Shown: piece after piece, positions 16,509 to 33,400 of the stretch
Position numbering within the stretch: position 1 is the first letter of the stretch
Layout: each line of letters opens with the position of its first letter
Source: Candidatus Aminicenantes bacterium
GTDB taxonomy: Bacteria; Acidobacteriota; Aminicenantia; Aminicenantales; UBA4085
Direction: 5' to 3'
Length of the DNA: 64,000 nucleotides
Assembly: GCA_026393855.1 (NCBI GenBank)
Contig: JAPKZJ010000071.1
Location: 12,567-76,566 of the forward strand
The notes under the pieces: generated by a model
Seen by the model: the letters and a program-made list of their open reading frames with translations, nothing else
Told to the model about the DNA's origin: nothing
Databases searched by the model: none
Program-made: the position numbers and the translations under genes

Positions 16509-16514
16509 AAGGAG

Positions 16515-16853
16515 CATCTCCCATCTCCGGGAAAAGCGGCCAGGGGGTATCGTCCCGGCGGCATCGGCCTCTGCTCGCCTTTTCCCACAGCTCTCTTCGG
16601 CGCCTCCAGCGCTTCGCAGTCCTCGTAGGGACGTCGCTTCGACAGTCCCCGCGAGGGCGGAACTCCGCATTCCAGATCAACCGGTCTTGGTGACCTCCCA
16701 CTCCGTTTCTTTTTCGATTTTTCTTTCCTAGCTCAAACAGCCCTCGGCGGCCGATGGCTTCCCTCGGAGAGCTATGGAAAAAGGCGCCGGCCTCGCGATT
16801 TCGCCGTTGGCCGATACCCCTATCCGCATTCCTTTCCCGGAGATGAGAGATGA
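16515..16853 (-). repeat. MITE-like intergenic repeat, copy D (inverted orientation)
   Basis: Ends CATCTCCCATCTCCGGGAAAAG (16515-16536) and CCTTTCCCGGAGATGAGAGATG (16832-16853) form a near-perfect 22-bp inverted pair. All shared modules are present in reverse complement, including the identical 75-nt core. Confidence 0.65.
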
Positions 16854-16960
16854 ATTTAATAAAAAAGCCCCCCCTCTCAGGTCCCACGGCCCGGTTGTCT
16901 CCCGGCCTTCGGATGTGATAGGTTGAACGGCGGAAACCCATCACTGTCCGGGAGAGAGCC

Positions 16961-18340
16961 ATGAGCAAACCCGCGTCCTTGTCCCGCCGCGATTTCATCA
17001 AAACGGCTTCCGCCGCCCTGACGATCCCGGCCGCAGCGGCTGGATCATTTAGGACAACTACGGAAGCCTCCGTCGCGGCGGGACCGACCATCGTCCCTTC
17101 GCGCGTCGTGACGGGCCGCATCCGGCCCAACGACACCCTGTCCTTCGGCTGCATCGGCGTCGGCCGCCAAGGCACGGGCGACATGCAGGAGCTGATCTAC
17201 CGAGGCCTGGAAGCGGGCGCCCGGGTCGTAGCCGTATGCGATGCCGACGCCCACCGCCGGGATAATGCCCAGTGGACGGCGGAGAAGATCTACGCCGCCG
17301 AGCTAGGGGCCACCGGCTACAAGGGCATCGACGTCTACGCCGATTTCCGCGAGCTTCTGGCCCGGCCGGACATCGACGGCGTGCTGATCGTCACCCCGGA
17401 CCATTGGCACGCCTGCCACGCCATCGCCGCGGCCGCGGCCGGCAAGGACATTTATCTCGAGAAGCCCCTGACCTACACCATCGCCGAGGGCCGCAAGCTG
17501 GTCGAGGCGGTGCGCCGGAACAAGCGCATCTTCCAGACCGGCTCCCAGCAGAGGTCGTCGGTCTATTTCCGGGTGGCGGCCGAAGCCGTCCGCAACGGCC
17601 GCATCGGCAAGCTGCGGACGATCAAGGTTCTCCTGCCGATCGACCAGGGCACCGGCGATCCCAAAGTCGTCCCCGTCCCCCGCTTCCTGGACTACAACGC
17701 CTGGCAGGGGCCGGCCGCCGAAATGCCCTACTCCGTCGACCGGGTCCACCCGGCGAACAGCCTGGACCGGCCCGGCTGGCTCCAGATCGAGCGCTACAGC
17801 CGGGGCATGATCACCGGCTGGGGCTCGCACATGATCGACAGCGCCCAGTGGGGCCATGGCACCGACGATACGGGCCCGGTCACGATCGAGGCCAAGGGCG
17901 AGTTCCCGGACCGCGGCCTGTTCGACGTCCACACGACGTTCAAGGGCCAGGCCGTCTTCGCCGACGGCGTCACGATGGACATGGAGACAGGCGAGGCGGG
18001 CGTGCGCTTCGAAGGGGACGCCGGCTGGGTTTACGCCGATCGCGGCAAGGTCCAGGCCTCCGACCCCGAGCTTCTGCGGGCCAAGCCGGGAGCGGGCGAG
18101 GTTAAGCTCCCGGTAAGCGGCAACCATATGAAGGACTTTCTCGAAGCCATGCGGACGCGCAAGGACCCCATCGCCCCGGTCGAAGTCGGGCACCGATCCA
18201 ACTCCATTTGCGTCCTGACCCACATCGCCATGAAGCTCGGCCGCAAGCTCCGCTGGGGCGCCAAGGCGGAGCGGTTCATCGACGACGCCGAGGCCGACCG
18301 TTGGCTGGACGTCCCGCACCGCGCACCCTGGACGCTGTAA
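16961..18340 (+). CDS. Gfo/Idh/MocA-family NAD(P)-dependent oxidoreductase, Tat-exported
   Basis: Twin-arginine signal SRRDFIKTASAALTIPAAAA; Rossmann motif FGCIGVGRQG; typical Gfo/Idh/MocA core (PDHWH, EKP). Confidence 0.8.
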   Translation: MSKPASLSRRDFIKTASAALTIPAAAAGSFRTTTEASVAAGPTIVPSRVVTGRIRPNDTLSFGCIGVGRQGTGDMQELIYRGLEAGARVVAVCDADAHRRDNAQWTAEKIYAAELGATGYKGIDVYADFRELLARPDIDGVLIVTPDHWHACHAIAAAAAGKDIYLEKPLTYTIAEGRKLVEAVRRNKRIFQTGSQQRSSVYFRVAAEAVRNGRIGKLRTIKVLLPIDQGTGDPKVVPVPRFLDYNAWQGPAAEMPYSVDRVHPANSLDRPGWLQIERYSRGMITGWGSHMIDSAQWGHGTDDTGPVTIEAKGEFPDRGLFDVHTTFKGQAVFADGVTMDMETGEAGVRFEGDAGWVYADRGKVQASDPELLRAKPGAGEVKLPVSGNHMKDFLEAMRTRKDPIAPVEVGHRSNSICVLTHIAMKLGRKLRWGAKAERFIDDAEADRWLDVPHRAPWTL

Positions 18341-18352
18341 GGGAAGACGGCG

Positions 18353-19324
18353 ATGACCCGGCGCTTGTCCGCGGGACTTCTGGCTCTTGGTCTCATCCTG
18401 GGAGCCAACGCCGCGCCTCCTTCACATATTGAGCTTCGCAATGACGATGCGGCAGGCCGCCTGCGGGTCCTTGTCGACGGCCGGGAGGCGTTCATTTACC
18501 AATACGCCGGCTCGCTCGACATGCCCCATTACTGGCCGCTGTCCACACCGGGCGGCCGCAATCTCCTGGTCCAGCAGACCGAGCCCTACCCCCACCACCG
18601 GTCCTTCTGGTTCGCCGACACGGTCCGTCTGAACGGCGGCCGCGACGTCAGCTTCTACAACGGGCTTTATTCCGGAGTGGAGCAGCCGACTGACCCCAAG
18701 ACCTACAAGCCCCCCTTCCGCGACCACATCCGTCATGTCCGATTCGCCAAGCTTGCGGCGCACGGCTCGCGCGCCGAGATCGAGGCCGAGCTCTTCTGGG
18801 AGATGGACGGCAATCAGGCCGTGCTCCGCGAGATGCGACGGCTCGTCGTCTACGGGCTGGGCGGAGGGGACTATCTTATGGATCTGTCCTTCGTCCTGAC
18901 GCCCGCCGGCGGCGAGGTCGAGTTCCGTAGCGACGACGTCCATTATGCCTGGCCCTACCTGCGCCTGCAGACGCGCTGGAGCGGCGAAGGCGGCGGCCGC
19001 CTAACGGCGGACGACGGCTCCGTCGGCCAGGAAACCACGAACATGCGGGCCGCCAAGTGGATCGACTACTCCAACACCATCGAAGGCGAGACGGCCGGCG
19101 CGGCCGTCTTCCAGTATCCCGACGGATTCAGCCACCGCTGGCTGACCCGCGAATACGGATGCTTCGGCCCGCGCCGCCCCGACGCGTTGAGCGGCAAGCC
19201 GTTCATCCTCGTTCCGGGCATGTCCCTGCGCCAGAGGATCGGCATCCTGATCCACGCTGGAGACGTCAAGAGCGGCCGGGTAGCCGAGCGCTACAAGGAC
19301 TACATCGGCGACCGCTGGAAATGA
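18353..19324 (+). CDS. PmoA-family / DUF6807 secreted protein
   Basis: Signal peptide plus MPHYWPLSTPGG...HHRSFWF motifs typical of the DUF6807 (methane-monooxygenase PmoA-like) family, which is recurrently paired with Gfo/Idh/MocA genes. Located 12 bp after the oxidoreductase gene. Confidence 0.6.
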   Translation: MTRRLSAGLLALGLILGANAAPPSHIELRNDDAAGRLRVLVDGREAFIYQYAGSLDMPHYWPLSTPGGRNLLVQQTEPYPHHRSFWFADTVRLNGGRDVSFYNGLYSGVEQPTDPKTYKPPFRDHIRHVRFAKLAAHGSRAEIEAELFWEMDGNQAVLREMRRLVVYGLGGGDYLMDLSFVLTPAGGEVEFRSDDVHYAWPYLRLQTRWSGEGGGRLTADDGSVGQETTNMRAAKWIDYSNTIEGETAGAAVFQYPDGFSHRWLTREYGCFGPRRPDALSGKPFILVPGMSLRQRIGILIHAGDVKSGRVAERYKDYIGDRWK

Positions 19325-20589
19325 TGGACCGAAGGAAATTCCTCAAAACGGCCCTGGCCGCTGCCGCGGCCGATGAGGCCTGGGCCTCGATTCCGTCGAG
19401 CCGGCTGACCTGGCCGCTTGTCGGGAGGCCGCTAATAGTCCCCCCGCCTACCCGCATCGCCCGAATCGATCTCTTCCCCGTCCTCTACCCCGTCTCGGGC
19501 TACTTCAAGTTCTTCGCCGGACCCGGCGGCCGGACCGGCCGGCCCGCGGTCATCATTAAAATCACGGCTGATGACGGGACCGTCGGCTGGGGCCAGTCCG
19601 TCCCGCTGTCCACATGGAGCGACGAGACCTGGGAAGGATCTGTCGCCGCCCTTCGAGTCTATTTCGCCCCCACCCTGATCGGCCTCGATCCCGAGAATCT
19701 CGAAGCGGCCCAGGCCGCCCTGGACAAGTCTGTTGCGGGCGGTTTCTCGACGGGGCTTCCCATCACCCGGGCCGGGCTTGACCTGGCTCTGCACGACTTG
19801 GCCGGCAAGCGCCGCGGCATCTCCCTGGCCCGCCTCTGGGGGAAGCCCGAAGGCGGACGCTTGACGCTGTCCTGGACGGTCAACGTCCGGACGCTGGGCG
19901 AAGCGGACGCCGTGATCGAGGAAGGCCGCCGCCGCGGCTATGCCCACTTCAACATCAAGATCGGCCCCGACCCGGACTTCGACATCGCCCTGGCCAAAGC
20001 CGTCCGCAAAGCAGCGCCCCAGGCTTTCTTATGGGCCGACGCCAACGGAGGGTACGATCAGGAGACCGCGCTACTGGCCGCCCCCCGGCTGGCGGATGCG
20101 GGGGTTGACGTCCTGGAATCTCCCCTGCGGCCCAACCGGATCTCGGGCTACCAGGCTCTCAAGAAGCAAGGCGCCCTGCCCATCCTGATGGACGAAGGCG
20201 TGGTCTCCCCCGCCGATTTGGAAGAGTTTATTCGGCTGGGCATGCTGGACGGGATCTCGGCCAAGCCCGCCCGCTGCGGCGGGCTGCGCTCCAACAAGCA
20301 CCAGATCGAGATCTGCCGCGAGCGCGGGCTGATGTGGCTCGGCAGCGGCCTGACCGATCCCGACATATCGCTGGCCGCGTCGCTGGCGCTTTACGGCGCC
20401 TTCGGACTGGCCAAGCCGGCGGCCCTGAACGGCCCGCAGTTCCTGGCCGCCGACGTGCTGAAGACGCCGCTTCGGATCGAGGGCGGCATCGCCCAAGTCC
20501 CGACCGGGCCCGGCTTGGGCATCGACGTCGACGAGGCCAAAGTCGTCGACCTCATGAAAAGAAGCGGCGGCGGCAAGCTGCTGGGCTGA
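19321..20589 (+). CDS. Enolase-superfamily enzyme (mandelate racemase/muconate lactonizing/dipeptide-epimerase-like), Tat-exported
   Basis: Tat motif MMDRRKFLKTALAAAAA. Enolase-superfamily metal ligands in the expected order (WADANGG, LESP, LMDEG) and the general-base region FNIKIG. The start overlaps the upstream stop (ATGA). The ORF-track start at 19057 lies inside the previous gene and is unlikely. Confidence 0.75.
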   Translation: MMDRRKFLKTALAAAAADEAWASIPSSRLTWPLVGRPLIVPPPTRIARIDLFPVLYPVSGYFKFFAGPGGRTGRPAVIIKITADDGTVGWGQSVPLSTWSDETWEGSVAALRVYFAPTLIGLDPENLEAAQAALDKSVAGGFSTGLPITRAGLDLALHDLAGKRRGISLARLWGKPEGGRLTLSWTVNVRTLGEADAVIEEGRRRGYAHFNIKIGPDPDFDIALAKAVRKAAPQAFLWADANGGYDQETALLAAPRLADAGVDVLESPLRPNRISGYQALKKQGALPILMDEGVVSPADLEEFIRLGMLDGISAKPARCGGLRSNKHQIEICRERGLMWLGSGLTDPDISLAASLALYGAFGLAKPAALNGPQFLAADVLKTPLRIEGGIAQVPTGPGLGIDVDEAKVVDLMKRSGGGKLLG

Positions 20590-20724
20590 TCCCCTTCCTT
20601 TTTCGCCATCCGATCGAAGCTCGCGTCGGCCCGTTCCTTGACTTATCAGGATGGAGTTGTTAAGTTTCATCTAGCGAAAGCGGATTACTCGATCTTACTC
20701 ATTGGGAATTATGGGGAGCGCCCT

Positions 20725-22176
20725 TTGAAGAGAGGCCTGATCTCGTCGATCCTTTTCCTTCTCGGAGCCATTCTCCCCGCCCCGGCCCAGGACAAGGAAT
20801 TCCGATTCGACGCCGGCGCTCGCCAGGCCCGCGATGTCTCGCTGTACCGTTCCAGCTACGCGCTTGTGATCGGCATTTCCAATTACACGGCCGGATGGCC
20901 GAAATTGCCGGGCGTTTTACGGGACATCGTGGACGTGGAGAGGGCTCTGAAAAAACAGGGCTTCGAAGTGACGGTCGTCCGGGACGTCGGGCAGGATCGG
21001 ATCAAGGGGGCTATCGAAGACTTCATCGGCCGCCATGGCGGCGAGCCGGAGAACCGCCTCCTGTTCTATTTCGCGGGCCACGGCCACACCTTGAGGACGG
21101 GCTACGGCGGAGAACTGGGCTTCATCGTTCCCTCCGACGCCCCCAATCCCGACGTCGACAAGGCGGGCTTCCGGGCCAAGGCCATCAGCATGCTGCTGTT
21201 CGAGAACTACGCGGTCAGCATCGACTCCAAACACGTGCTGTTCGTGTTCGACAGCTGCTTCGCCGGTTCGATCTTTGCCGCGAGCCGGTCCGCCTCCGTG
21301 GCGATCAGCGAGAAGACGGCCGCCCCCGTCCGACAGTTCATCACCTCGGGGAGCGCGGACGAGAAAGTCCCGGACGAAAGCATCTTCAAAGGGCAGTTCA
21401 TCGCCGGAATCGAAGGCGAGGCGGACATGAACCGCGACGGCTATGTCACCGGGGACGAGTTGGGGATCTTTCTTGCGACAAACGTCGTCAACTACTCGAA
21501 AGGCGCCCAGCATCCGAAGTACGGAAAGCTGATGAATGCCAAGCTGGATAAGGGCGATTTCGTCTTCATCCTGCCCAAGGGGGTTATCCAACCGGTTTCC
21601 AAAACCGAGGCGGATGTCGCCTCCCGGATCGAGCTGGAGTTCTGGAAGTCGACCAAGGAAAGCGATCGGGCGGAAGCCTACGCCGGCTACCTGGCAAAAT
21701 ATCCGGGCGGCGTCTTCACGGCCCTGGCCAAGCAGAGGCTGGACGAATTGGCCAAGGCCGAGGCGGCGGAGAAAGCGGGCAACCCGGCCGCAGAGAACCG
21801 GGAGGAGGCCGTTCCCGCAGTCCGGTTGATCCAGCTCCCCGGGGCCATGATCCGCGAATATAACGACAGGATCGGACGATTCTCTGTTTCCGGCGTTCCT
21901 GCGGACCTCAAGGCCGGCGGCCAGATCACCCTGGTCTATGCCGTCGCCCGGGACGGCCGGGTGTCCGTCGAATCGATGAACGATGCGGCTCTCGATGTCG
22001 TCCCCGAGGATAAAAAGCAAGCGGTTAAGGACGGCATCATCGCCGCGGCCCGGGAGATCGTCCTGCCTCCGCCCCGGGACAAAGAAGGGAACCGCGTCAC
22101 CGTGGTCCATTGGCCGGTCAGCTATCAGGTCGGCCGTTATCAAGACAGGCTCGTTTTCAACATCGTCGCTTTCTAA
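20725..22176 (+). CDS. Secreted caspase-domain (peptidase C14) protein with C-terminal TonB_C-like/unknown domain
   Basis: Signal peptide LKRGLISSILFLLGAILPAPAQ (TTG start after GGGGAG). Caspase p20 His (LFYFAGHGHT) and Cys (VLFVFDSCFAGS) dyad; YALVIGISNY block. C-terminal ~150 aa are unassigned. The ORF-track start at 20638 is probably too early. Confidence 0.75.
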   Translation: MKRGLISSILFLLGAILPAPAQDKEFRFDAGARQARDVSLYRSSYALVIGISNYTAGWPKLPGVLRDIVDVERALKKQGFEVTVVRDVGQDRIKGAIEDFIGRHGGEPENRLLFYFAGHGHTLRTGYGGELGFIVPSDAPNPDVDKAGFRAKAISMLLFENYAVSIDSKHVLFVFDSCFAGSIFAASRSASVAISEKTAAPVRQFITSGSADEKVPDESIFKGQFIAGIEGEADMNRDGYVTGDELGIFLATNVVNYSKGAQHPKYGKLMNAKLDKGDFVFILPKGVIQPVSKTEADVASRIELEFWKSTKESDRAEAYAGYLAKYPGGVFTALAKQRLDELAKAEAAEKAGNPAAENREEAVPAVRLIQLPGAMIREYNDRIGRFSVSGVPADLKAGGQITLVYAVARDGRVSVESMNDAALDVVPEDKKQAVKDGIIAAAREIVLPPPRDKEGNRVTVVHWPVSYQVGRYQDRLVFNIVAF

Positions 22177-22187
22177 GGAGGTGGCCG

Positions 22188-23222
22188 TTGAAATCGCAAG
22201 GTTCCGTCCGGAGAACCGCCCTGGCCGCCGTCTCGATCGCCGTCCTGTTCCTGTCCCTCGCCCGGCCGGCCGCCGCCCAGCAGAGCGAGCTGGAGAAGGC
22301 CAAGACCCTCATCAACGCCGGGGAGTTCGACGCGGGCATCAAGCTGCTGGAAGGCTACATCGCCACCATCAAGGACATCGCCAGCCGGCGAAAGTCCATC
22401 GCCGAAGCGTATTACCTGATCGCCAAGATCTACTTCTCCGTCGGAGAGGACGACAAGTCCGACGAAAATCTAGCGGCGGCCTTCGCCGCCTTTCCGGGCT
22501 TCATGGCTGAGGAGACGAACGCCGCTTTCCGCATCCGGGCGGAACGAGGCCGGGCTCTTGCGGCCCAGCGCCAGAGGGAGGAACAGGCCGCAGCCGCGGC
22601 GAACGGGGCGAAATCCGGCGGCAAGGGAAGCGCCGCCTTCCGCTTCAAGGTGCTGGGCGCATATTGTTTCTGCGACTCGAGCCGGACCACCGCTTTCGGA
22701 CAAAAAGTGAGTTCGTACTATCGCGTCGCCCCGGCCATAGGCGTGGGAGCCGAGTTCGGCTCAAGTCTGGTCCTGGACGTCGAGATATGGCTGCTGCCCA
22801 AAGGGGGCAATTTCACCTTCTCCTATCCCGCTGCCGGCGAGAGCTACTCTGAAGCCGTGGATGTGTACGTATTTCGCTGGGAGATCAGCCTGCCCGTCTT
22901 GGCCAAGCTCTACGTACTGCCCGCGGACTCCCGCATCCGGCCGTTCGTCCTGGGCGGCGGCGAGATCGCCCAGGTCACCTGGAATGTCCTGGAGGGGTAT
23001 TGGGGGGACATTCAGCAGAAAAGACAGACCCTGTCGAAACAGATGGATTACGGCCTGATCTTCGGCGCGGGAGCGGATTTCCGCCTGGGCGCTCGAATAT
23101 CCCTCTTCCTCGAGGGACGCCTTCATCTCGGGCTGGCCGAGCTCGACAATGGCGGCGATTACTACGGCCCGGCCCCCTCGAAGCCGTATATGCTCGGAAT
23201 ATTCACCGGGATCAAGTTCTGA
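22188..23222 (+). CDS. Putative outer-membrane beta-barrel protein with N-terminal helical (TPR-like) domain
   Basis: TTG start 6 nt after AGGAGG; signal peptide AAVSIAVLFLSLARPAAAQ; helical region KTLINAGEFDAGIKLLEGYI...AEAYYLIAKIYF. The C-terminal half is strand-rich and ends ...GIFTGIKF, a typical OMP C-terminal aromatic. Located 12 bp after the caspase gene. Confidence 0.45.
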   Translation: MKSQGSVRRTALAAVSIAVLFLSLARPAAAQQSELEKAKTLINAGEFDAGIKLLEGYIATIKDIASRRKSIAEAYYLIAKIYFSVGEDDKSDENLAAAFAAFPGFMAEETNAAFRIRAERGRALAAQRQREEQAAAAANGAKSGGKGSAAFRFKVLGAYCFCDSSRTTAFGQKVSSYYRVAPAIGVGAEFGSSLVLDVEIWLLPKGGNFTFSYPAAGESYSEAVDVYVFRWEISLPVLAKLYVLPADSRIRPFVLGGGEIAQVTWNVLEGYWGDIQQKRQTLSKQMDYGLIFGAGADFRLGARISLFLEGRLHLGLAELDNGGDYYGPAPSKPYMLGIFTGIKF

Positions 23223-23255
23223 TCAAACGCTTCTTTCGGGGAAGAGGAGGAGACC

Positions 23256-24926
23256 GTGCATCATTCATTTGCAAGAACCGTCGTGGCCTTGGCCGTCAGC
23301 CTCTTTCTGGCCGGTCTCTTCCTCGCGGCCGCCCAGGATCGGAATCCCGCCTGGCCCGGCCAGGGAGCCAAGCCCGGCGCTCCAAGCTCCCCCTCGGGCA
23401 AGCCGGCGCCGGCCGCCGATGATGGGCTCAAATTTGTCGGCCAAATCGTCGGGGAAACGACGTCCGTCGCGGGCTCGGCCGGCCATTACGAGCGCGTCCT
23501 GCTGGCCCCCCCCGACGACGGCCGCTTGAAGGCCGGAAATACGTGGGAGATCGGCATGGACGTGGCGGTCAAGCTCGGGCTCAAGAAGCCCGCCGAGCGA
23601 TGGGCGGTGATCCGCCGCAACCTCTTGTTGTCGCCGTCCGATCGGGAGGATCTCGTTCTTTGGACCGAGGTCGTCGATTCCCTCCTCGATCAGATCGGGA
23701 AGCTTCCTGCCGAGGAAAAGCCCGGAGTTCCCGGCTTCGGACTCCTTGTGGCATTCCCGGGGCAAGCCGCTTCCGACGACGCGAAAGCCAATGTGGCGCT
23801 CACATTCAACTCGAATCAGACCAGCCGCAAGGACAAGGAGCAAAAGAAGGACTTCGAAAGCGAATTGAGCCGGAGCGTCCGCGAGCCGCTGACCGGCGCG
23901 GAAGGCTTTCTGAACATCGTGGACGACCAGGGGGTCTCGTTGACGTCCGACGAAGCGCAAAACGCGCTGCTGAATGTGAAGCTCAAGCTCTATGACGGCG
24001 GCGGCAGGGAGGTGGATGCCGTTCCGGAGATGAAAGGCCGCTATTTTCGCTTCTCGCCTCTCACGGCCGATGGGGAGTTCGGAAGCGACTATTGGCTTAA
24101 GGTCCAATGGAGCGCCGAAGCGGCGGCCCAAAAAGGCGTCGCCGGGAAGGTCCTATCGGAGCATTACGTTCCCGTCCGGCAAGGCGCGCGGACGCGAATG
24201 GACGTCAGGCTGGCCTTGAGCAAGATCGTCCAAGCCGGCAAAGGCGACATCGGGCTTCCGGGAGCGCCGGCCGCCGTATCGCTTCTCTACCAGAATTTCG
24301 TGGCTTCGAATCCCCTGCTGGGAGTTCTGACCCAGGTCATGCCTTCGAACCCGGGCCTGCATCTCGGCGTACTCCAGATCAAAGACGCCGGCCCGCAGGT
24401 CTTCTGGTCGACACGCTTCCGCCTGCTGGCGGACATGCAGGACCGGAGCCCCCGCTTCATCACCCGGGGCTCCCTCCGGCTGCAGTGCATGACGGAAGCG
24501 GCAACCGACGGCCAGCCGTCTTGGCACTATGTAAAAATCACATGGTGCGGGAGCGTTGACGAGGATCAGCTGTCACTGAAATCCAGGAGAAATGCGAAAT
24601 TCCTGGGCTTGAAGAGGGATTTTCTGGGGATCGGCCTGGGCGTCGTGCCTTCCTTGGAGCCGTCTCTCTTCGCCGTGGGGGCAAGTCTCAAGCCTATCAA
24701 GGGCTGCGAGATCTTTCTCGGCGCCGGCATCCGCCAGGACTATCCGACCCGATTCGTGTACGGCCTGACGCTTGATGTCATGGACATGTTGAGCTTCTTA
24801 GGCATCGCCTCCCCGTCGGAAACGCCGGCCGCAGCGACCGCGGTCGCCGCGGAATCGTCGGGGGCGGCGGAGAAAGCGACCGGGCAACGTTTCGGACCCG
24901 CGCCTCCCCGGAAGAAATCGAACTGA
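23256..24926 (+). CDS. Secreted hypothetical protein (no recognisable domain)
   Basis: GTG start after GAGGAGGAG; signal peptide RTVVALAVSLFLAGLFLAAAQD; 556 aa; coding-like codon bias. Lies in the operon between the OMP-like gene and the second caspase gene. Confidence 0.5.
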   Translation: MHHSFARTVVALAVSLFLAGLFLAAAQDRNPAWPGQGAKPGAPSSPSGKPAPAADDGLKFVGQIVGETTSVAGSAGHYERVLLAPPDDGRLKAGNTWEIGMDVAVKLGLKKPAERWAVIRRNLLLSPSDREDLVLWTEVVDSLLDQIGKLPAEEKPGVPGFGLLVAFPGQAASDDAKANVALTFNSNQTSRKDKEQKKDFESELSRSVREPLTGAEGFLNIVDDQGVSLTSDEAQNALLNVKLKLYDGGGREVDAVPEMKGRYFRFSPLTADGEFGSDYWLKVQWSAEAAAQKGVAGKVLSEHYVPVRQGARTRMDVRLALSKIVQAGKGDIGLPGAPAAVSLLYQNFVASNPLLGVLTQVMPSNPGLHLGVLQIKDAGPQVFWSTRFRLLADMQDRSPRFITRGSLRLQCMTEAATDGQPSWHYVKITWCGSVDEDQLSLKSRRNAKFLGLKRDFLGIGLGVVPSLEPSLFAVGASLKPIKGCEIFLGAGIRQDYPTRFVYGLTLDVMDMLSFLGIASPSETPAAATAVAAESSGAAEKATGQRFGPAPPRKKSN

Positions 24927-24943
24927 TCCCAATCGGCCCAGCC

Positions 24944-27310
24944 ATGTCCGGAGCCCCTGGAACGTCCCGCCGCATGCGCCGCCGCCTGACGGTCTTGGGA
25001 CTTATCTGGATCTCGGCCGTGTTGGGTTTGCAGGCGGAGACACGCCGGGCTCTTCTCGTCGGCATCAACCAGTATGTTCCCCAAGGATCCCCTCCCAGCA
25101 TGATCAAGGATGCCTCTTATCTGGGAAGGCAGGAGTGGTGGAACTTGCGCGGATGCCTGAATGACGTCAAGGTCATGCGGGAACTTTTGGAAAAGAAGTT
25201 TCGTTTTCCGCCGCAAAACATCGAAGTCCTCCTGGACGCTCAAGCCACGCGCCAGGCGATCATCGACGCGATCCGAGGGCGGCTGATCGCAGCCTCGTCT
25301 CGCGGCGACGTCTCGCTGTTCTATTTCTCCGGCCACGGCTCGAGATTCATCAATACTCTGAATGGCGAACTGAAACGGAAGGACGAAACAATCGTCCCGG
25401 CCGATTCCTATGCCGGGGCCAAGGACATCCGCGACAAAGAGCTGGCCCGACTCTTCAACGAAGCTCTCGACAAAGGAGTCATCCTCACGGCCATCTTCGA
25501 CAGTTGCTGCAGCGGCTCGGTTTGCCGCGGCTTCTCGGCCCTGGACGCCGGCCAAAGCCGGTACCAGCCGGAAGTTCGCAGCGATGCCCTCGAGCCGCCC
25601 GACTCGACAAAAAAGCCCGAGGAGCGGACGGAGCTCAAGGAGCGCGGGATCCTCGTCTTGTCGGCAGCCCAGGATGACCAAATCGCCGAGGAAGCCTTCG
25701 ATGAGGAGGCCCGGGACAAGGAAAGCCGGCCGCGCGGCGCGTTCAGCCTGGCCCTGTCCAAAGTCCTTTCGGCCGCCTCTGAAAATGAGCCGGCCTCCCG
25801 GATCGAGCAGCGCTTGCGATCGATCATGCTTTCCGAAAACCGGGCTCAGATCCCTGTCTTCAGCGGGACAAGCGAGCGGATGTCCGGGCCGCTTTTCGGC
25901 GCCGGAACGGCCGTGTCGACGGGAGGGCTCTGCGTGGCGGCCGTTCAAGTCGAGGGCGACGCAGTGGAGATCCGAGGCGGATACGCGGTCGGCCTGGCGG
26001 AGGGCTGTGAGCTGAATTTAGAGGATGCCCGGAGGCCGTCCGAAGTGCGCATCCGCATCACCAAGGTGGAGGGCCTAGCCCAAGCGAAGGCGGCAGTGAT
26101 CGCGGGGTCGGCGTCCACCATCAAGCCGGGCTCGCTCTTTCGCGTTTACAAATGGACCTACTCCAACGCTCAGGGGGCTCTCAAGGTCTGGTGGCCCGCC
26201 TCGCCCCCAAAGCTCCAGGACCTCAACACCGCCCGAAGCGAGATTCAAGCGTTGAAGAGCTCCGGACAAATCGCCTGGGTTCGGGATCCGACCGAGGACA
26301 GTCCCGACTGGCAGGTCGGCTACGACGGCCGGTCGTGGATTCTTCTCGAGAAGGCCGCCGGACGGCGCATCGTCCTGAAACAGCCTTGGCGGGCGAAGGA
26401 CATCTTGGAAATTGTGTCAGTCCCGGGCGGTGGGCGGGCCAAGGTTTTCGTCGGCTTTCCCGCGCCGGTCGAGCTTACCGCGAAGCTGAACCTCGGCTCC
26501 GGAACGGCCAACGACGCCGTCATCCGGACCGTCTCCGAAAGCGAGGCGAATTACTCCTTGGTGGGGCGACTGGAAGACGGCGCCGTCCAGACGGCCTGGC
26601 TAGCGCGCAACGCAATCCGGGAGCCGTCAGAATCCCCCCTGCCGGTTCGAAGCGACTGGCGGACCGTGATGCCTTCGGCGGAGTCGTTGCGCGACGCGGC
26701 TGCCGCTCTGGAAGACGCGGCACTTCGACTTCAAAAAATCAAAGGCTGGCTCAACTTGCAATCTCAGGACGAGAGCCTGCGTCCCTTCCCCTACCACCTC
26801 GGCTTCAAAAACGCGGGGACCGGCCGAGTGACGAGCCCGAACGAGCCGCTTCAAGTCGGCGAACGCTATAATGCGGTCCTCATCCGCGACGAGGCTCCTT
26901 CAGGATCTCGGCCGGAGCAGCGACGCATCTACGTGTTCGCCATCAGCGGCGACGGCCGCGGGACGCTTCTCTATCCCCGTTTCGGCGAGGTCGAAAACTT
27001 TCTGCCGCCGGAAAATCAGCTTGTGAAGGGCGGGAATATCGTCCTCAAGGACGCGGCAGGCGCGTTCCAAATTCCGGAGACGACCGATCCCTGCGCTTAT
27101 TTCCTTCTGACGAGTGCCGATCCCCTTGGGAACCCCTGGGTCTTGGAGTTCGACGGAGTCAAAACAAGAGGGGCCGGCGTCGCGGAAGGCTCGAGCAATC
27201 CCCTCGCCCGGCTACTGCAGCAGGTCGGCGCCGCAACGCGAGGCAAACCTGCGGCGCCATCCCACTGGTCCGTCGAGCATTACATCGTCAAGAGCGTCCC
27301 GGCAAAATAG
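24944..27310 (+). CDS. Large secreted caspase-domain (peptidase C14) protein with ~500-aa uncharacterised C-terminal region
   Basis: Signal peptide (MRRRLTVLGLIWISAVLGLQA); caspase blocks ALLVGINQY, FYFSGHGS (His) and AIFDSCCSGS (Cys). The rest is unassigned. Located 18 bp after the previous gene. Confidence 0.75.
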   Translation: MSGAPGTSRRMRRRLTVLGLIWISAVLGLQAETRRALLVGINQYVPQGSPPSMIKDASYLGRQEWWNLRGCLNDVKVMRELLEKKFRFPPQNIEVLLDAQATRQAIIDAIRGRLIAASSRGDVSLFYFSGHGSRFINTLNGELKRKDETIVPADSYAGAKDIRDKELARLFNEALDKGVILTAIFDSCCSGSVCRGFSALDAGQSRYQPEVRSDALEPPDSTKKPEERTELKERGILVLSAAQDDQIAEEAFDEEARDKESRPRGAFSLALSKVLSAASENEPASRIEQRLRSIMLSENRAQIPVFSGTSERMSGPLFGAGTAVSTGGLCVAAVQVEGDAVEIRGGYAVGLAEGCELNLEDARRPSEVRIRITKVEGLAQAKAAVIAGSASTIKPGSLFRVYKWTYSNAQGALKVWWPASPPKLQDLNTARSEIQALKSSGQIAWVRDPTEDSPDWQVGYDGRSWILLEKAAGRRIVLKQPWRAKDILEIVSVPGGGRAKVFVGFPAPVELTAKLNLGSGTANDAVIRTVSESEANYSLVGRLEDGAVQTAWLARNAIREPSESPLPVRSDWRTVMPSAESLRDAAAALEDAALRLQKIKGWLNLQSQDESLRPFPYHLGFKNAGTGRVTSPNEPLQVGERYNAVLIRDEAPSGSRPEQRRIYVFAISGDGRGTLLYPRFGEVENFLPPENQLVKGGNIVLKDAAGAFQIPETTDPCAYFLLTSADPLGNPWVLEFDGVKTRGAGVAEGSSNPLARLLQQVGAATRGKPAAPSHWSVEHYIVKSVPAK

Positions 27311-27414
27311 GCTGGGATCTATGCCGAGGAAGGCGGGAACCTGCACTCGCGCAGCGATCCAAGGTCATCTGACATCCCTCAAGCTGCCAAGACGTCCGGG
27401 ATCAACCGGCCGGC

Positions 27415-30400
27415 TTATCGAACGATGATCTCGACGCTCCCGGAATGGCTGTTGAACTCGGGCGCGTACATGCACTCGATATGGGCCATGCCGTTCTGGT
27501 ATGTCCCGCGATGGACGACCCGCAGTTGGTACTCAAAGACATAGGTGCCCTTCGGCAGGTAGTCGATGAAGAAGTGGCTGGCCGTGTCCTTGGTCGCTTC
27601 ATAATAGGCCAGCCCGTCCTGGAACTTGTACTGCGACAGGACATTGACCGGCTCCAGGCCGCTGCCCCGGTGGTCCTTCATATGGACGTACTCCAGGTCC
27701 CGATCCGTTCGAAGCTCGATCCGAACGACGACCGTGTCGCCGACCGCGAGCGGCCCGCGAACCGGCTCGATGACCGGCCCCTTGGCCGTGGCCCGGCGGA
27801 CGAAGACCGTCTTCTTCAGAGTCAGTGGGTTCTGGGCATGGGGCGTGATCTTGCCGATGTCCTCGAGGTACTGCCAATGGACGCCGCCCCAGGCGATCCC
27901 GGGGTCCGTCTTCTTGACGACGATCTCGCCCATGGCGGGACGGATCTCGCCCGGCGCATACCTCTTTTCATAGAAGCCGGTCCCGGCCTCGACGGTTTCG
28001 GGCTTGACGGCCTGCCCGCCCAGCCGGACTTCAACGACCGCGTCCGAGGCCAGAATGTCCGTGCCTTTGAGGACCAGGGCATAGATCGCGTCGGCTGTGG
28101 CTTTGGTCGTCTTCCAGTCCTGGGTCTGCTTCTGCTTCAGCAGCCAGATCTTGCACTCCTCGACCGCCTTGGCATCGCCCAGGACCTCGTCGAAGGCCTC
28201 GATCATCATGGCCTGGGTCTCGATGGGCGCCCGGTACCACCACCAGGCGAGCTCGGTCTCGGCCCAGTAGCGGCCCAGCTCGGGGTCCAGCTTGCTCCGC
28301 TCTTTCATCGAGCGCATGATCTTGCCCGGCGTTGCCGCGTCCCCAAACCGTTTCAGGCCGACGGCCAGGTGGGCCTGGCTCTGCCGGTTGTCGAGCGGGA
28401 GCCAGAATTTCGCCCCTTGCCCGAGGAAATAATCAAAGGCTTTGCGGGCGGCATCCGGCACGGGCTTCTCTTTCAAGAAGAAGCTCCGGCCATAGAGAAA
28501 TAACGCGATCGTCGGGCTTAGGTGATTGAGGGCCTGGGTCTTGTCTTTGACGATCTCCCGATAGACCTTGTCGATCCATTCGTCCAGGTGATCGATCGCC
28601 TTCACGGCCAGATCTTGGGAAACGTCTGTGACTCCCAAACGCTTGAGGCGGCCGAAGCCGGTGACGAGGTAGAGGGTGATGTAGCTGTCGCCCCGGCCGC
28701 CGGGGAACCAGGGCCAGGACCCGTCGGCGAGCTGCATGGCCGCCAGCTTGCCGTAGGCGTTTTTCAAGCTCGAGGCCAGCGTGTTCTCGTCGAACAGCAG
28801 GCCGATGGCATGCTTGGCCTGGGTCTCATTCTTTGCCTCCAGCACCCAGGGCGATTCCTGAAGCAGGACGCTCTTAAGGTCCTGGTTCTTCTCCAGGTTG
28901 GAGACAAGCGCAGGCGTCCCCTTCCAAAGATCGAACACGCGCCGGATTTTGGGATCCGAAGCGGCGATGCGGCCGGCCAGGCCATTGGCGTAGAGGCGGT
29001 TGAAGATCTGCTCGGCGCATTCATAAGGGTATGCCATGAGATAGGGCAAGGCCTGAATGGCGTACCAAGCCGGGTTGGAAGCCATCTGCACGGTCAGGCC
29101 GAGCTGTCGAAGCGAGCCGGACCCGCCGGAGTCGGCCAGCTTATCGAAACGGAACGATTTCTCGCCCTTGTCCGATATCCACAGGGGGATCGATTCGCGG
29201 ACCAGCATCCTCCGGCTAAGGACGGGGAACGCCCCCTCCTCGCCGTCGGAAAAGTCCCCCGCCGCGGCCACGGCTTTATAGCCGACCGCTTCCAGCCCGT
29301 CCGGAACGGCGATGGGCCAGGCGAACGATCGGGACTGCTTGGCCGGCAAGGTGAAGGCTTGACGGCGGGACTTGTTGGCCAAGGCCGCGTCAAGCGGAGC
29401 CTCGGTCCGCGGGTCGAAAAAGGCCAGCTCGACAGCGCCGGCCTGTTCGGTCTCGGTCATATTGGTGACCTTGACGGTGAGCTCGATCACGTCTCCCTCG
29501 CGGAGGAAGCGGGGCGGATTCGGCTGGACCATGAGCTCCTTCTGGGTCACGGCCTCGGCTTCGATGGATCCGCTGCGCAGATCCTTGTCGTGGGCGAAGC
29601 CTAGGAACTTCCAGCGGGTCAAGGCCTCGGGGATCTTGAACTCGATCGTCACCGTGCCGTTCTTGTCGGCCAGAAGCTGGGGATAAAAGAATGCCGTTTC
29701 GGAGAGGTTCTTGCGGGCCTTGACGGCTGAGAGATCAACTTCGGCCGGCTTTTTCACGGGCGGCGGAGGAGCGGCGATACCGCCGACGACTCCGCCCACG
29801 ATTCCCCCGGCCATCGATTTGAGCTCGGAGGCCGGGGCAGCGGCCACATCCATAGCCATGCTCGGCTCAGCTTCCGGGATCGCGCCCGGCCGGGCCATCA
29901 TCCGGCGGGACGGATAGTCGAATCCGAACAGGCGCTCCACCACATCCTCTGGAAAACGTATATAGAGGGGCGTTGCGGTCGAGGGGATGGAGTTGAGTCG
30001 ATCGACATAGTCCCGCAGGTCCTGGCGCCGATTGCTGTAGCCGGACCGAAGATTAGTCGTGTCGGAGCGAAAGATGTTCATGACCCCGGGGAACCCGTGG
30101 CCAAGGAACTGGTCGAGAGAAGCGTCATAGAGCGAGGCGACCATTTCAGCCGCCGCCGCCGCGGCCTTGGGGCCTTTGATCTCGAGCGACCAGGTCTCGG
30201 CCTGGCCCGGGCGCAGCTTGGAGCGGAACGTCTTCCAGCGCAAGTCCAGGCGCTTATTCGACCAAGGGACCAACACCCGCCGGGTTTCCCGATAGAGCCG
30301 ATTGTCTTTGACCATGGTCAGGACGATCGTGAATCCGCCGCGGTGCTTTTCGGCTACCCGCACGGTGGTGCGGCCTTGGGTCGCCTCGGCCGAAGCCCAG

Positions 30401-33400
30401 GCCCGCTCGAGCCGGCGCCCGTTCTGATAGAAGTCGATCAGGATCGGGCCTTTCGCATACCCGGTCCCCCACCACAGTTCATAATCATCGCCGACGTCGA
30501 CAATATCCCGGCGGGAGGCGGCGTGGAATGGGACTTTGACGGGGAAGGATGTCGCCGCCGGATCGAGCACCAGGAAGGCGAACCGCGTTTCGACCGCGAC
30601 TCCATCCTTGTCCTTGGTCCGGAGCCTGGCTTGATACGCACCCGGCCCAAGATCGAACGGGATCCGGCAGGCCTGGCGTTCGTCGAGGACGGTCTCGAAG
30701 TCCCGTTTCACCACGACCGCCCCGGCCGGCCACTTGCGCCAATCCGCGGTCCGGGCGAACCCGGCTTCGGGCCCGGATGCCCCCGCTTCCGCCTCGAGGA
30801 CGGCGCTCTCGCCGATGAGGTCGGCCGGCTCGGGCCGCTCGGGCCCGAGGAGCGGGGACACCTCGATGACCCCCTTGGCCGCGACGCGCTTGCCGTTCAA
30901 GGTCAGCGTGGAAGCCGTGAGGACCACGGGCTTGCCCTTCTCCTGCCAGTCGGAGCCGGACAGCGAGGCCTCGAGCGAGGCGAACCCCACCCGGACCCGG
31001 CCTTCATCGCTGCGCGTTTCGCCCGTCCCATCGGTGACGTCGGCGGTAACCGCGAACGTGAAGACCGTACCGGGATCGGCCGGAACCGAAGCGTCGGGCT
31101 TGGCCGGAAAGCGAACCGTGAACTTTCCTTCGACGTCGGTGCGGACGGTGCCGTGGGCGATCTCCTGCGAGTCGCCGCCGGAGCCGCCGCGCCAATAGAA
31201 CCACCACCAGGGATACCGGACTTCGCGTACGACCCGGTATTTGACCGAGGCGCCGTCGACCGGAGCACCGGCATAGGTCGTCGCCGCGCCGGCGAACTCG
31301 ATCGTCTCGCCCAGCTTGAACTCCCGCTCGGGAACGGCCAGCTTGACCTCGAACTTGGGCCGTTTGTACTCCTCCACCCGGACCGACGCCTGCCCGGCCG
31401 GATTCTCCGCCTGAATGGTCATGGCCCCGGTCAGCCGGTCGGTCGGCGCGGAAAACGAGCCGCTGAAGGACCCGAAATCGTTCGTCGTCAGGCTCAAAGC
31501 CGCGATCTCCTCGCGGTTGGCGTCCCGGAAGACGACCCGCACGGACTGCTTGGGCAGGATCCGGTAATTGTCCGCGGCCCGGTCGACATTCAGGCAGAGG
31601 CCCTTGAAAAAGATCGTCTGCCCGGGACGGTAAATGGAGCGGTCGGTGAAGAAGACCGTGACGGGCGCCTCTCGTTCGGTCCGATCGTAGGACCGGTCGA
31701 TCTGCGTCTCGGCGATCTCTCCTCCATCGGCCGTCCGGACGTGAAAAACACGATTGCGATACGAGTCGCCGGCCTGAAGAAAGAAGGCGCCTTGGGCATC
31801 GGTCTTGGCCGTGCCGATCTTAACCAGGGCGGACTTGTTGTAATCCCATTCATAGGCAACGATGTCCGCGCCGGGGACCGGGTCGCCCGAGGCGGCCCGA
31901 ACGATGAGGCCTTCCGGAATGAGTCCGGCGGTCCCGGCCACGAAACCGAGGTCGGAAACCCAGAACGACGCGGCTTCGACTTTATTGGCCTTGTTCGCGA
32001 ACGACTCGTCATGGCTGGCCAACAGGTAATAAAAGCCGGGCTTGAGGGCCGGCATCTCCACCAATGCCCGGCGCGATTGATAGTCTTTGGTGGGCTTCAG
32101 GTCGGCCGACCAACGGGCCTGGGGCGCCCGGGTTAAAATCTTGGCCACGGCATCGTCGTTCAGCCAGAAGAGCGTCTCGGCCCCCCTGCCGGCCAACAGG
32201 CCGGCGAAATCCTCCCGCACGGCCCGAAAATGGAGCCGGGTGACGTTCCGGTATTCAACAACCAGCCGGGCCGGACGGTCCGGCGCCACCACCCCTTCGG
32301 TCCGGACATCGAACTCGCGGGCCGTGATGCGGGCCATCAGAACTCTGCAATTCGCCGCCCCGATCGACTTGGGGTGGGCATCGGCGCCCCGCTTGGCTAA
32401 GGCATAGGCCTGGATAAAATCGCCGGACTCGTGCACCGCTTCGGCCCAACGGGCCAGGGCGGAGGCTTGAAGCGGCGAGGCGGCATGCACCTCGACCAGT
32501 TCGCGCAGGCGCTGGATATAGCGATCGCGGGCGGCGTCGCCGGCCGAGGCTTTGGCGAAATCGAGCCGCTGGAGGTCGATATCGAACGCCGCATCGCCGT
32601 CGGCGTCGCCCTTGTGAAAGGCCAGCAGGCCCTGAAAGACTCGCAAAGCCCGCAAGGCGGGGGCTTCCTGATCCGTCGTCTCGGGTTCGTACTTCAAGAA
32701 TTCGGCCGCTGGGGCCAAGGCGGCCGAGTCAGCCGTAATCTCGAAAGCGTCCTCGGGACGGGCCGCGGCCTGCTCGCCGGAAGCATAAAACTCGAGCGCT
32801 TCGAAGGCCGCGAAATCATAGAGCGTCGGCCGCCGAGTAGACGGCTGGTCGCCCGGCAGAAGAAAGCCCAGGAAAGCCGCGATCGGAGTCTTCTTCAAGT
32901 TCTCCGCGTCCTTGAAGATGTCCTGATAGAGCCCGTCGATCGTCCGCAGCAGCCGGGGCAGGTCCCAAGTCGTGAAATCCTTGTCGTCGACACCCTCCGT
33001 CGCGGTCCGCCCGGTGAACCGCCAGCGGTTGCGCGAGAAATAGCTCCAGTACCAGCGGGCCAACACGATCCGCAGCATCGGCTTGAGCGATTCGGGAGCC
33101 TTCCCGATCTCCTCCTGCAGCCGGACGAGGCGCGGCCCCGGCTGGTTCCCTTCGATCGTCGCCTCCAGGATGAGCTGCCGGGTCAGAGCCCGCAGGGCTT
33201 CGGCCGGCTGGCGGTCCGCGGCGGAGGCGGTATAGATCTTCTTCAGCAGGTCGACGGCGGTCTGGGGCAGCCCATCCTTTTCGGCCTTGGCAACCTGGGC
33301 CCAGAGCTCGACCGTGTTCACCTTGGGTCGGTCTTGCATCGTTTTTCCTCGGATGGCGCCGGCCACGACGACGGCCAGGAGGACGAGAATGCCGATCAGC

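Follow-up and report, generated by a model that had tools for sequence, protein, structure and literature searches.

A Candidatus Aminicenantes gene cluster encoding two predicted exported C14 proteases, an outer-membrane barrel protein and an orphan protein

Current work on the caspase homologues of bacteria is almost confined to those that serve as immune or death effectors in the cytoplasm, and for the exported members, though numerous, we know of no substrate or role. Here we describe a cluster of four genes, G1 to G4 (our names for the four open reading frames (ORFs) within positions 20590-27310 of the window, i.e. the whole stretch of 64,000 nucleotides analysed, taken from contig JAPKZJ010000071.1 of a Candidatus Aminicenantes bacterium), which encodes two C14 proteases (G1 and G4), an outer-membrane (OM) barrel protein (G2) and a protein of a rare orphan family (G3). 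We interpret this cluster as a periplasm/OM-associated paired-metacaspase module for limited proteolysis that consists of two conserved, probably co-transcribed gene pairs, an interpretation to which we give about an even chance. Our literature searches turned up no work on the function of a bacterial C14 protease that is exported and has an OM partner.

The general kind of such a system is already known, since a survey of prokaryotic metacaspases reported exported metacaspases, multi-metacaspase operons and operons with OmpA-domain proteins (Asplund-Samuelsson et al. 2012, PMC3501461). In this survey, many prokaryotic metacaspases have a transmembrane helix or signal peptide at their N-terminus and an extracellular location was suggested for them, 20 multi-metacaspase operons were found, exclusively in Alphaproteobacteria, Bacteroidetes, Cyanobacteria and Deltaproteobacteria, and OmpA-domain proteins were present in 14 metacaspase operons. 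The window cluster resembles this catalogue in its likely extracellular or periplasmic C14 proteins, in having more than one metacaspase per operon and in the presence of an OM protein within a metacaspase operon. A preliminary description of this DNA had called an exported caspase pair with an OM protein unusual, which was overstated, as PMC3501461 catalogued such kinds and the G4 architecture alone occurs in at least 348 clusters. The survey did, however, define neither the G4 architecture of ~780 amino acids (aa), nor the G3 family, nor the G1-G2 and G3-G4 pairs, and it assigned no function. What the present analysis adds is a delineation of the G4 architecture, the observation that this is often paired with a second exported caspase, the orphan family of G3, which is linked to G4, and the G1-G2 pair.

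Compared to the metacaspases and orthocaspases of family C14B (Arabidopsis MC9 and MC4, yeast Yca1, Trypanosoma MCA2, Geobacter GSU0716), G4 shares the His-Cys dyad, the GCxND and D-x-C motifs, a p10-like part and a disordered, basic-rich linker after the catalytic Cys, and G1 has the same dyad and a D-S-C motif. Unlike the characterised members, which are intracellular or secreted by eukaryotic routes, G4 has a putative Sec-type leader and carries a conserved non-catalytic region of ~460 aa with predicted beta-barrel and Ig-like domains, whereas G1 has an embedded EF-hand-like loop and is in sequence nearer to the paracaspase MALT1. A caspase-fold domain in the periplasm has been described for DdvA, a Myxococcus transmembrane anti-sigma factor whose TPR-CHAT domain is periplasmic (PMC11506125). 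Both systems have a caspase-fold protease domain in the (for our cluster, predicted) periplasm and a helical-repeat module (for our cluster, a putative one) combined with a protease, and some G4 subfamilies also adjoin genes for extracytoplasmic function (ECF) sigma and anti-sigma factors. DdvA, however, consists of one membrane-anchored polypeptide, belongs to the CHAT family, has an incomplete active site and is tied to an ECF sigma factor (PMC11506125). The window proteases, in contrast, are of the C14 metacaspase type and look like soluble exported proteins, and the cluster holds no regulator. The PorU-PorV attachment complex and the gingipains of Bacteroidota belong to clan CD family C25, not C14, and depend on the type IX secretion system and on C-terminal-domain signals; no type IX components or signals were seen in the window cluster, in a comparison that was not itself put to a test. 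Finally, the caspase-like effectors of anti-phage systems (Craspase TPR-CHAT, the SAVED-CHAT protein of the cyclic oligonucleotide-based anti-phage signalling system (CBASS) and gasdermin-activating proteases) are cytoplasmic and coupled to nucleotide or RNA sensors, whereas the window cluster is without a sensor partner and its proteins have export leaders.

The gene cluster and its C14 proteases

All four ORFs are present on the + strand with short spacers between them, in agreement with the preliminary description:

20725-22176, + strand: G1, TTG start, 483 aa, C14 caspase-like protease, predicted exported
22188-23222, + strand: G2, TTG start, 344 aa, outer-membrane beta-barrel protein
23256-24926, + strand: G3, GTG start, 556 aa, predicted exported, rare orphan family
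24974-27310 (778 aa, public gene calls) or 24944-27310 (788 aa), + strand: G4, ATG start, metacaspase-like protease, predicted exported
20638-20666, + strand: promoter-like TTGACT-17-TAAGTT, weak

The gaps are indeed short, the true spacers being 11, 33 and 17 (or 47) nucleotides (nt) instead of the 12, 34 and 18 bp given earlier. A Shine-Dalgarno (SD)-like sequence had been proposed for each gene, which holds for G1 (GGGGAG, 6 nt upstream of its TTG start), G2 (AAGGAGG) and G3 (GAGGAGGAG) and fails for G4, of which neither candidate start has a convincing one. The sigma-70-like promoter that had been placed upstream of G1 at ~20632-20660 actually lies at 20638-20666 and was rejected, because its -10 hexamer equals TATAAT at only 3/6 positions and a consensus promoter scan of 20400-27600 returned 0 sites. 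Terminator-like hairpins within the cluster are as frequent as expected from shuffled controls (8 observed, 8.0 expected), and the four genes are probably co-transcribed. Their third-position G+C (0.76-0.79) is slightly below that of most neighbours (0.81-0.92), a minor difference.

Both G1 and G4 contain a C14 domain, as Pfam Peptidase_C14 (PF00656; gathering threshold 21.4 bits) matches G1 with 61.9 bits (E 9e-17) and G4 with 80.4 bits (E 2e-22). Their features are the following, with G4 residues in the numbering of the 778-aa form:

20725-20787, + strand: G1 residues 1-21, signal-peptide-like (heuristic)
20836-21579, + strand: G1 residues ~38-285, C14 domain (Pfam PF00656)
21079-21081, + strand: G1 catalytic H119, motif YFAGHG
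21256-21258, + strand: G1 catalytic C178, motif FDSCFAGS
21424-21459, + strand: G1 residues 234-245, EF-hand-like loop DMNRDGYVTGDE (Pfam EF-hand_5, E 0.018)
21787-22173, + strand: G1 C-terminal domain of ~130 aa, after a helical 'ELEFW...YLAKYP' motif, ending in ...NIVAF
24974-25036, + strand: G4 residues 1-21, signal-peptide-like (heuristic)
25037-25903, + strand: G4 residues ~22-310, metacaspase domain with p20 and p10-like parts (profile against the PDB)
residues 60-64 (GCLND) and D176 of G4, + strand: S1-pocket motifs, aligned with Yca1 and AtMC9
25334-25336, + strand: G4 catalytic H121, motif YFSGHG
25505-25507, + strand: G4 catalytic C178, motif FDSCCSGS
residues 180-222 of G4, + strand: disordered Arg/Lys-rich linker after the catalytic Cys
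25925-27307, + strand: G4 non-catalytic C-terminal region of ~460 aa, with small beta-barrels, an alpha/beta unit, a long helix and a DUF4384-like beta-sandwich

The catalytic His and Cys, which had been proposed to be retained in YFAGHG/FDSCFAGS of G1 and YFSGHG/FDSCCSGS of G4, are confirmed also in their structural context: the dyads align to those of solved metacaspases and are invariant in 43 G4 and 4 G1 homologues. A G4-family profile finds metacaspase-9 in the PDB at E 4e-35, with GHG and DSC aligned to the catalytic residues and a second aligned stretch covering the p10 part, i.e. a metacaspase fold including the p10-like part. The counterparts of G4 H121 and C178 in AtMC9 are the catalytic His and the catalytic Cys (mutated there), and the two G4 residues also align with Yca1. 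H119 and C178 of G1 align with those of G4 in turn, the two window proteases being only distantly related (30% identity over the p20 core).

We take the Asp of GCxND and the Asp two residues before the catalytic Cys to form the acidic S1 pocket seen in the structures of TbMCA2 and Yca1, a pocket that gives Arg/Lys specificity in solved metacaspases. These acidic residues are present in G4 (D64 in LRGCLND, and D176-S-C178) and in G1 (D67 and D176-S-C178, also invariant among the G1 orthologues), and in a 43-sequence G4 alignment H121, C178, D64, D176 and many C-terminal residues are invariant. As it is GCxND and D-x-C that make up this acidic pocket in metacaspases, cleavage after Arg/Lys is predicted for G4. 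Metacaspases autoprocess in the loop after the catalytic Cys; the Arg/Lys-rich linker at this place in G4 indirectly hints at autoprocessing, and the EF-hand-like loop of G1, of which the pattern DxNxDGxVTxxE is invariant among 4 G1 orthologues, hints at calcium dependence.

The G4 family comprises at least 348 clusters at 90% identity, which cover the full ~780 aa at 33-58% identity and come from Aminicenantes, Terriglobia, Thermoanaerobaculia, Verrucomicrobia and Nitrospira; its named members are annotated only as 'caspase family protein'. DUF4384 (PF14326) gives no match in the G4 of the window and is matched by several homologues (e.g. P0038, residues 670-737, 27.2 bits at a threshold of 27), at a position that corresponds to the aligned and conserved G4 residues ~650-715. 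For G1, the closest solved relative by sequence is the paracaspase MALT1. The C-terminal domains of G1-type proteins vary, with an FGE-sulfatase domain in L032, another unrecognised domain in L034 (both L-numbers, like those below, denote loci of homologues) and the version of the window common to L099 only. The earlier suggestion of a TonB_C-like tail in G1 was dropped, because a profile search gave no Pfam match in the tail of G1 or its L099 orthologue even at E<=5.

Predicted export leaders and the G2 and G3 products

The signal peptides proposed for all four proteins were assessed with a heuristic of our own, in which an export signature consists of a basic n-region, a hydrophobic core and an AxA-like site. 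All four N-termini are signal-peptide-like by this measure, with a 10-residue Kyte-Doolittle mean of the core of 2.5-3.0, and so are those of 89/111 G4-family and 17/19 G3-family members. Basic-hydrophobic leaders also start the neighbouring second caspases in L032, L034, L099, L005 and L006. The features of the two non-protease products are:

22188-22277, + strand: G2 residues 1-30, signal-peptide-like (heuristic)
residues ~31-135 of G2, + strand: helical N-domain, followed by an Ala/Gln/Glu-rich linker
22635-23219, + strand: G2 residues ~150-344, barrel (OMP_b-brl_2), ending in GIKF
23256-23333, + strand: G3 residues 1-26, signal-peptide-like (heuristic), followed by a disordered Pro/Ala-rich segment
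residues ~60-200 of G3, + strand: alpha/beta N-domain (predicted model)
residues ~214-320 of G3, + strand: transthyretin/CnaB-like beta-sandwich (predicted model)
residues ~367-507 of G3, + strand: eight-strand barrel-like C-domain (predicted model), followed by a disordered tail

G2 shows the properties of an OM barrel protein, namely a match to Pfam OMP_b-brl_2 (PF13568; 34.8 bits, threshold 27), a leader that ends in AAA|QQ and an aromatic residue at the C-terminus (...GIFTGIKF). Of the earlier picture of a helical, TPR-like N-domain fused to an OMP-like C-terminus ending in F, the barrel and the F stand, and the TPR assignment finds no support by score, the values remaining below threshold (TPR_14 18.1 against 23.5 bits, TPR_8 13.3 against 25.7). 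Because both termini of an even-stranded barrel face the periplasm, the N-terminal helical extension of G2 should do so as well. The G2 family has only 4 clusters.

G3 was rightly described as being without detectable homology: neither Pfam (also when searched by segment), NCBIfam nor PADLOC gave a match, and a full profile scan of 1.84 billion representatives found no bridge from the G3 family to any known family. The family counts eight clusters at 90% identity in a word-indexed search and ~31 representatives at 50% identity in the full HMM scan of 1.84 billion proteins. All seven of its loci from reference genomes are uncultured metagenome-assembled genomes, four of which are labelled Candidatus Aminicenantes. 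Profile searches led us to reject remote homology for G3 beyond generic beta-sandwich and barrel similarity; its C-domain weakly resembles small barrels (OmpX, Ail, Tsx, PcoB and designed transmembrane barrels), and the last strands of this domain are OMP-like (…EIFLGAGIR…FVYGLTLD).

Recurrence of the gene pairs and neighbourhoods of related loci

The cluster is best read as two conserved caspase + partner modules side by side, G1-G2 and G3-G4. The full quartet occurs in the same lineage only, in the identical contigs L001-L004, and L100 (~90% identity) shows G1-G2-G3. In L099, a G1-like gene (62% identity) precedes a G2-like gene (52%) with the same 11-nt spacer as in the window. The G3-G4 pair is found in five further independent contigs, in both gene orders, with 46-54% identity for the G3-like and 37-58% for the G4-like proteins:

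L101: G3 then G4, G3-like 54%, G4-like 57%
L102: G3 then G4, G3-like 53%, G4-like 56%
L104: G3 then G4, G3-like 47%, G4-like 58%
L005 (=L011): G4 then G3, G3-like 46%, G4-like 37%
L006: G4 then G3, G3-like 46%, G4-like 37%

It is the breaking up of the quartet in L104, L099 and L005/L006 that leads to the reading as two modules. The four-gene system put forward earlier is thereby retained as an operon-like cluster of two intact C14 proteases, an OMP barrel and an orphan and given up as a conserved unit; recurrence of both pairs in other genomes contradicts chance adjacency, the quartet itself being confined to one lineage. In L005 and L006 the G4-G3 pair is followed by a gene for a 1200-aa exported-type WD40 protein with a C-terminal C14 domain, and G1 orthologues directly adjoin G4 orthologues in L032 (54%) and L034 (45%).

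This association of caspase genes was seen more widely in a survey of 83 G4-type loci, 80 of which come from metagenomes. In 31/83 G4 loci, another C14 gene is found at a distance of up to 6 kb. If one counts only the 35 loci that extend for 3 kb or more to either side, 18 have such a gene, in 10 cases directly adjacent. Control Aminicenantes-type loci gave 0 C14 ORFs in 120 kb, and the remaining ~57 kb of the window likewise gave 0. Next to G4-type genes, a further exported C14 gene is strongly enriched, and the recurrent pairing is compatible with a two-protease mechanism. Some loci contain three C14 genes in a row (L034, 6995-13829; L083, 2409-12126), the order in L034 being a 421-aa C14 protein, a G4-type and a G1-type protein.

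G4 subfamilies also have other recurrent neighbours: a ~370-aa protein with a twin-arginine translocation (Tat) leader in 26 loci, a ~350-aa protein in 12 loci, which is joined by an ECF sigma/anti-sigma pair in 8-9, a ~440-aa protein in 12 loci, a secreted protein of ~150 aa in 13 and CHASE2 proteins in 5. None of these partner families showed homology to G3, and the idea of G3 as a divergent relative of other G4-partner families (cl3, cl5, cl6, cl8) was rejected on hhalign probabilities <1%. One G4 subfamily (L038, L044, L047, L055, L059, L074, L082 and L098) has the ECF sigma and anti-sigma-like gene on the opposite strand and the ~350-aa protein upstream, an arrangement that recalls envelope signalling modules. 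Large proteins made of WD40 repeats (beta-propellers), 900-1400 aa long, are repeatedly found beside G4-type caspases, in L005 (11356-14961), L006 (10571-14200), L083, L086, L089 and L032, and several of them have signal-like leaders. WD40-caspases are usually regarded as cytoplasmic STAND-type proteins; judging by their leaders, the proteins with a C-terminal C14 domain of L005 and L006 would be an exported WD40-caspase architecture. In Nitrospira sp. Kam-Ns4a (L103, 10433-11983; a 3.9-Mb complete-genome-level record), which could be more accessible for experiments, a trypsin-like gene precedes the G4-type gene, after which come a gene for a 168-aa protein and one for a stand-alone 314-aa DUF4384 protein.

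The G3-like proteins of loci without a caspase gene are more distant relatives (37-42% identity). Their genes are divergent from a SHOCT-domain gene and a gene for a ~420-aa protein in L007, L008, L012, L013 and L014, and sit between a tricorn-like S41 protease gene and an MR_MLE gene in L009, L010 and L015. The most distant G3 clade (L007 835-2482, L012 2575-4295, L013 8093-9728 and L014 9345-9722, all on the - strand) is always divergent from a 125-aa SHOCT membrane protein and the ~420-aa protein, the latter having no Pfam match; a SHOCT gene is also found in L102, downstream of the G3-G4-WD40 set. In the window, an MR_MLE (enolase-superfamily) gene with a Tat-like leader (19321-20589, + strand) lies just upstream of G1. 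In L009 (11436-12584), L010 and L015 (11544-12692), which are free of caspase genes, it has a homologue (E ~1e-22) immediately downstream of the G3-like gene. Because MR_MLE adjoins the G3-like gene in caspase-free loci and the cluster in the window, the two may be old neighbours to which caspase genes were added later.

The neighbours of the window cluster are GFO/IDH/MocA, DUF6807, MR_MLE and alpha-2-macroglobulin (A2M) genes, the last of which is convergent with G4 at a gap of 104 nt:

27415-33429, - strand: alpha-2-macroglobulin-type protease trap, 2004 aa, Pfam MG2, A2M and bMG10, signal/anchor-like N-terminus

With its thioester motif YECAEQ at residue 1471 (CxEQ), this protein is a thioester A2M. 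L016 (5679-6905, - strand, and 15281-18505, + strand) and L017 contain a G4 homologue of 55% identity and a second C14 gene; after these, on the same strand, comes a bacterial A2M other than that of the window, and upstream there is a serpin. A recurrent caspase-A2M linkage was rejected, as it is limited to the window and L016/L017, the two A2Ms do not match by phmmer and no A2M was found in the other ~80 G4 loci; a protease/inhibitor link of the window A2M to the cluster is possible.

A proposed mechanism and its alternatives

We place the system in the periplasm or at the OM because all four products carry export leaders and one is an OM barrel. The G1-G4 products would act there as follows: G2 may tether or present G1, G3 may serve as an adaptor, anchor or substrate of G4, and the two active-type C14 cysteine proteases, placed outside the cytoplasmic membrane of this Aminicenantes bacterium, would carry out regulated limited proteolysis of envelope proteins. 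One protease possibly activates the other via the Arg/Lys-rich inter-subunit linker, and calcium gating might be involved. It is only the recurrent pairing of caspase genes that suggests cross-activation. The protease cascade and the toxin or death roles put forward in the preliminary description are conjectural.

Several points weigh against this interpretation. The quartet is not conserved as a unit outside close relatives: G1-G2 of L099 is followed by unrelated genes (a 186-aa protein of no recognised family and a Reg_prop protein), and in L104 the gene upstream of G3 lies on the opposite strand, so that G1-G2 does not belong to this locus. In seven independent loci of the G3 family there is no caspase in the vicinity, and G3 therefore does not strictly need one. 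The structure models cover G3 and G4, not G1 or G2, and the G3 model is only moderately confident (predicted local distance difference test score, pLDDT, 62). After the barrel-like domain of G3 come a helix and a variable tail, not a terminal aromatic residue. The start of G4 is ambiguous and without a clear SD, the export of G1-G4 is predicted by a home-made heuristic, and interaction, processing site, substrate and calcium dependence are all predictions.

A broader version of the model is a widespread extracytoplasmic two-protease cascade in Acidobacteriota, Verrucomicrobia and Nitrospira. At the envelope, a scaffold-bearing 'initiator' of the G4 type would switch on an 'effector' with a variable domain (G1-type, WD40-C14 or FGE-sulfatase-C14), and lineage-specific adaptors or anchors such as G3 and G2 would give specificity. 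Such a periplasmic analogue of initiator/executioner caspase logic could serve envelope remodelling, kin or phage sensing, or regulated lysis; we hold this extension to be unlikely.

The cluster might also be explained by ordinary exported digestive proteases, with G1 and G4 feeding a protein-fermenting cell and G2 and G3 being unrelated envelope proteins on a shared transcript. Export-type leaders on all products fit this explanation, as do the other exported peptidases and inhibitors adjoining G4- or G3-type genes (Peptidase_C1 in L018, Peptidase_S9 in L006 and L018, a trypsin-like protease in L103, tricorn-like S41 in L009 and L015, serpin and A2M in L016, and the A2M of the window). Metacaspase-type enzymes are, however, processing proteases of narrow specificity, the ~460 aa of non-catalytic domains are kept full-length across at least 348 G4 clusters, specific partners are kept across 37-58% protein identity even with the gene order reversed, and caspase genes are paired far more often than in control DNA, so we rate a purely digestive role as rather unlikely. 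Another explanation would be a chance adjacency of four functionally unlinked genes, as might be expected from a quartet present in near-identical contigs only and from modules that part in L099 and L104; the independent recurrence of each pair across distant relatives, the G1-type genes next to G4-type genes in L032 and L034 and the 11-47 nt spacers without an excess of terminators make it very unlikely.

Two further explanations assign the proteases to regulatory or defence roles. Upon an extracytoplasmic cue, exported caspases could cut a membrane regulator (an anti-sigma factor or a sensor kinase) in the manner of site-1-type proteases, as proposed for DdvA, and the ECF sigma/anti-sigma pairs (8-9 loci) and CHASE2 sensors (5 loci) that adjoin some G4 subfamilies point in this direction. 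We find it quite improbable for the window, where no sigma factor, anti-sigma factor, kinase or CHASE2 gene flanks the cluster and G1 and G4 appear as soluble-type exported proteins without a transmembrane anchor or cytoplasmic domain; most G4 loci likewise lack such regulators. Alternatively, the proteases could be cytoplasmic effectors of abortive infection or programmed death, as is usually assumed for caspase homologues of bacteria, with the hydrophobic N-termini being membrane anchors or the result of misread starts. The generic PADLOC caspase model (PDLC02987) indeed matches G1 and G4, and there is a weak, sub-threshold match to the EACC1-associated caspase type (NCBIfam NF047832). The latter scores 55 (G1) and 40.2 bits (G4), far below the cutoff of 140, and no EACC1/NTPase partner is present in the locus; PADLOC matched neither G2 nor G3, and with the generic model as the sole match, membership of a defence system was rejected. 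Moreover, no sensor partner (STAND/NTPase, SAVED, TIR, gasdermin, CRISPR or any other) accompanies the cluster, whole families keep the leaders and an OM barrel lies inside the operon, which leaves a cytoplasmic death effector barely credible.

If G1 and G4 were only digestive enzymes, the finding would be routine. As it stands, the locus offers something concrete to start from: the G4-type family, which counts at least 348 clusters and has a good structural model, a specificity predicted to be for Arg/Lys, and candidate partners in G3, a second caspase and an OM barrel. Should the pairing mean cross-activation or tethering, caspase-type regulated proteolysis would be at work in the bacterial envelope, and hundreds of proteins from phyla of soil and sediment that are annotated as 'caspase family protein' would, if this is true, gain a function.

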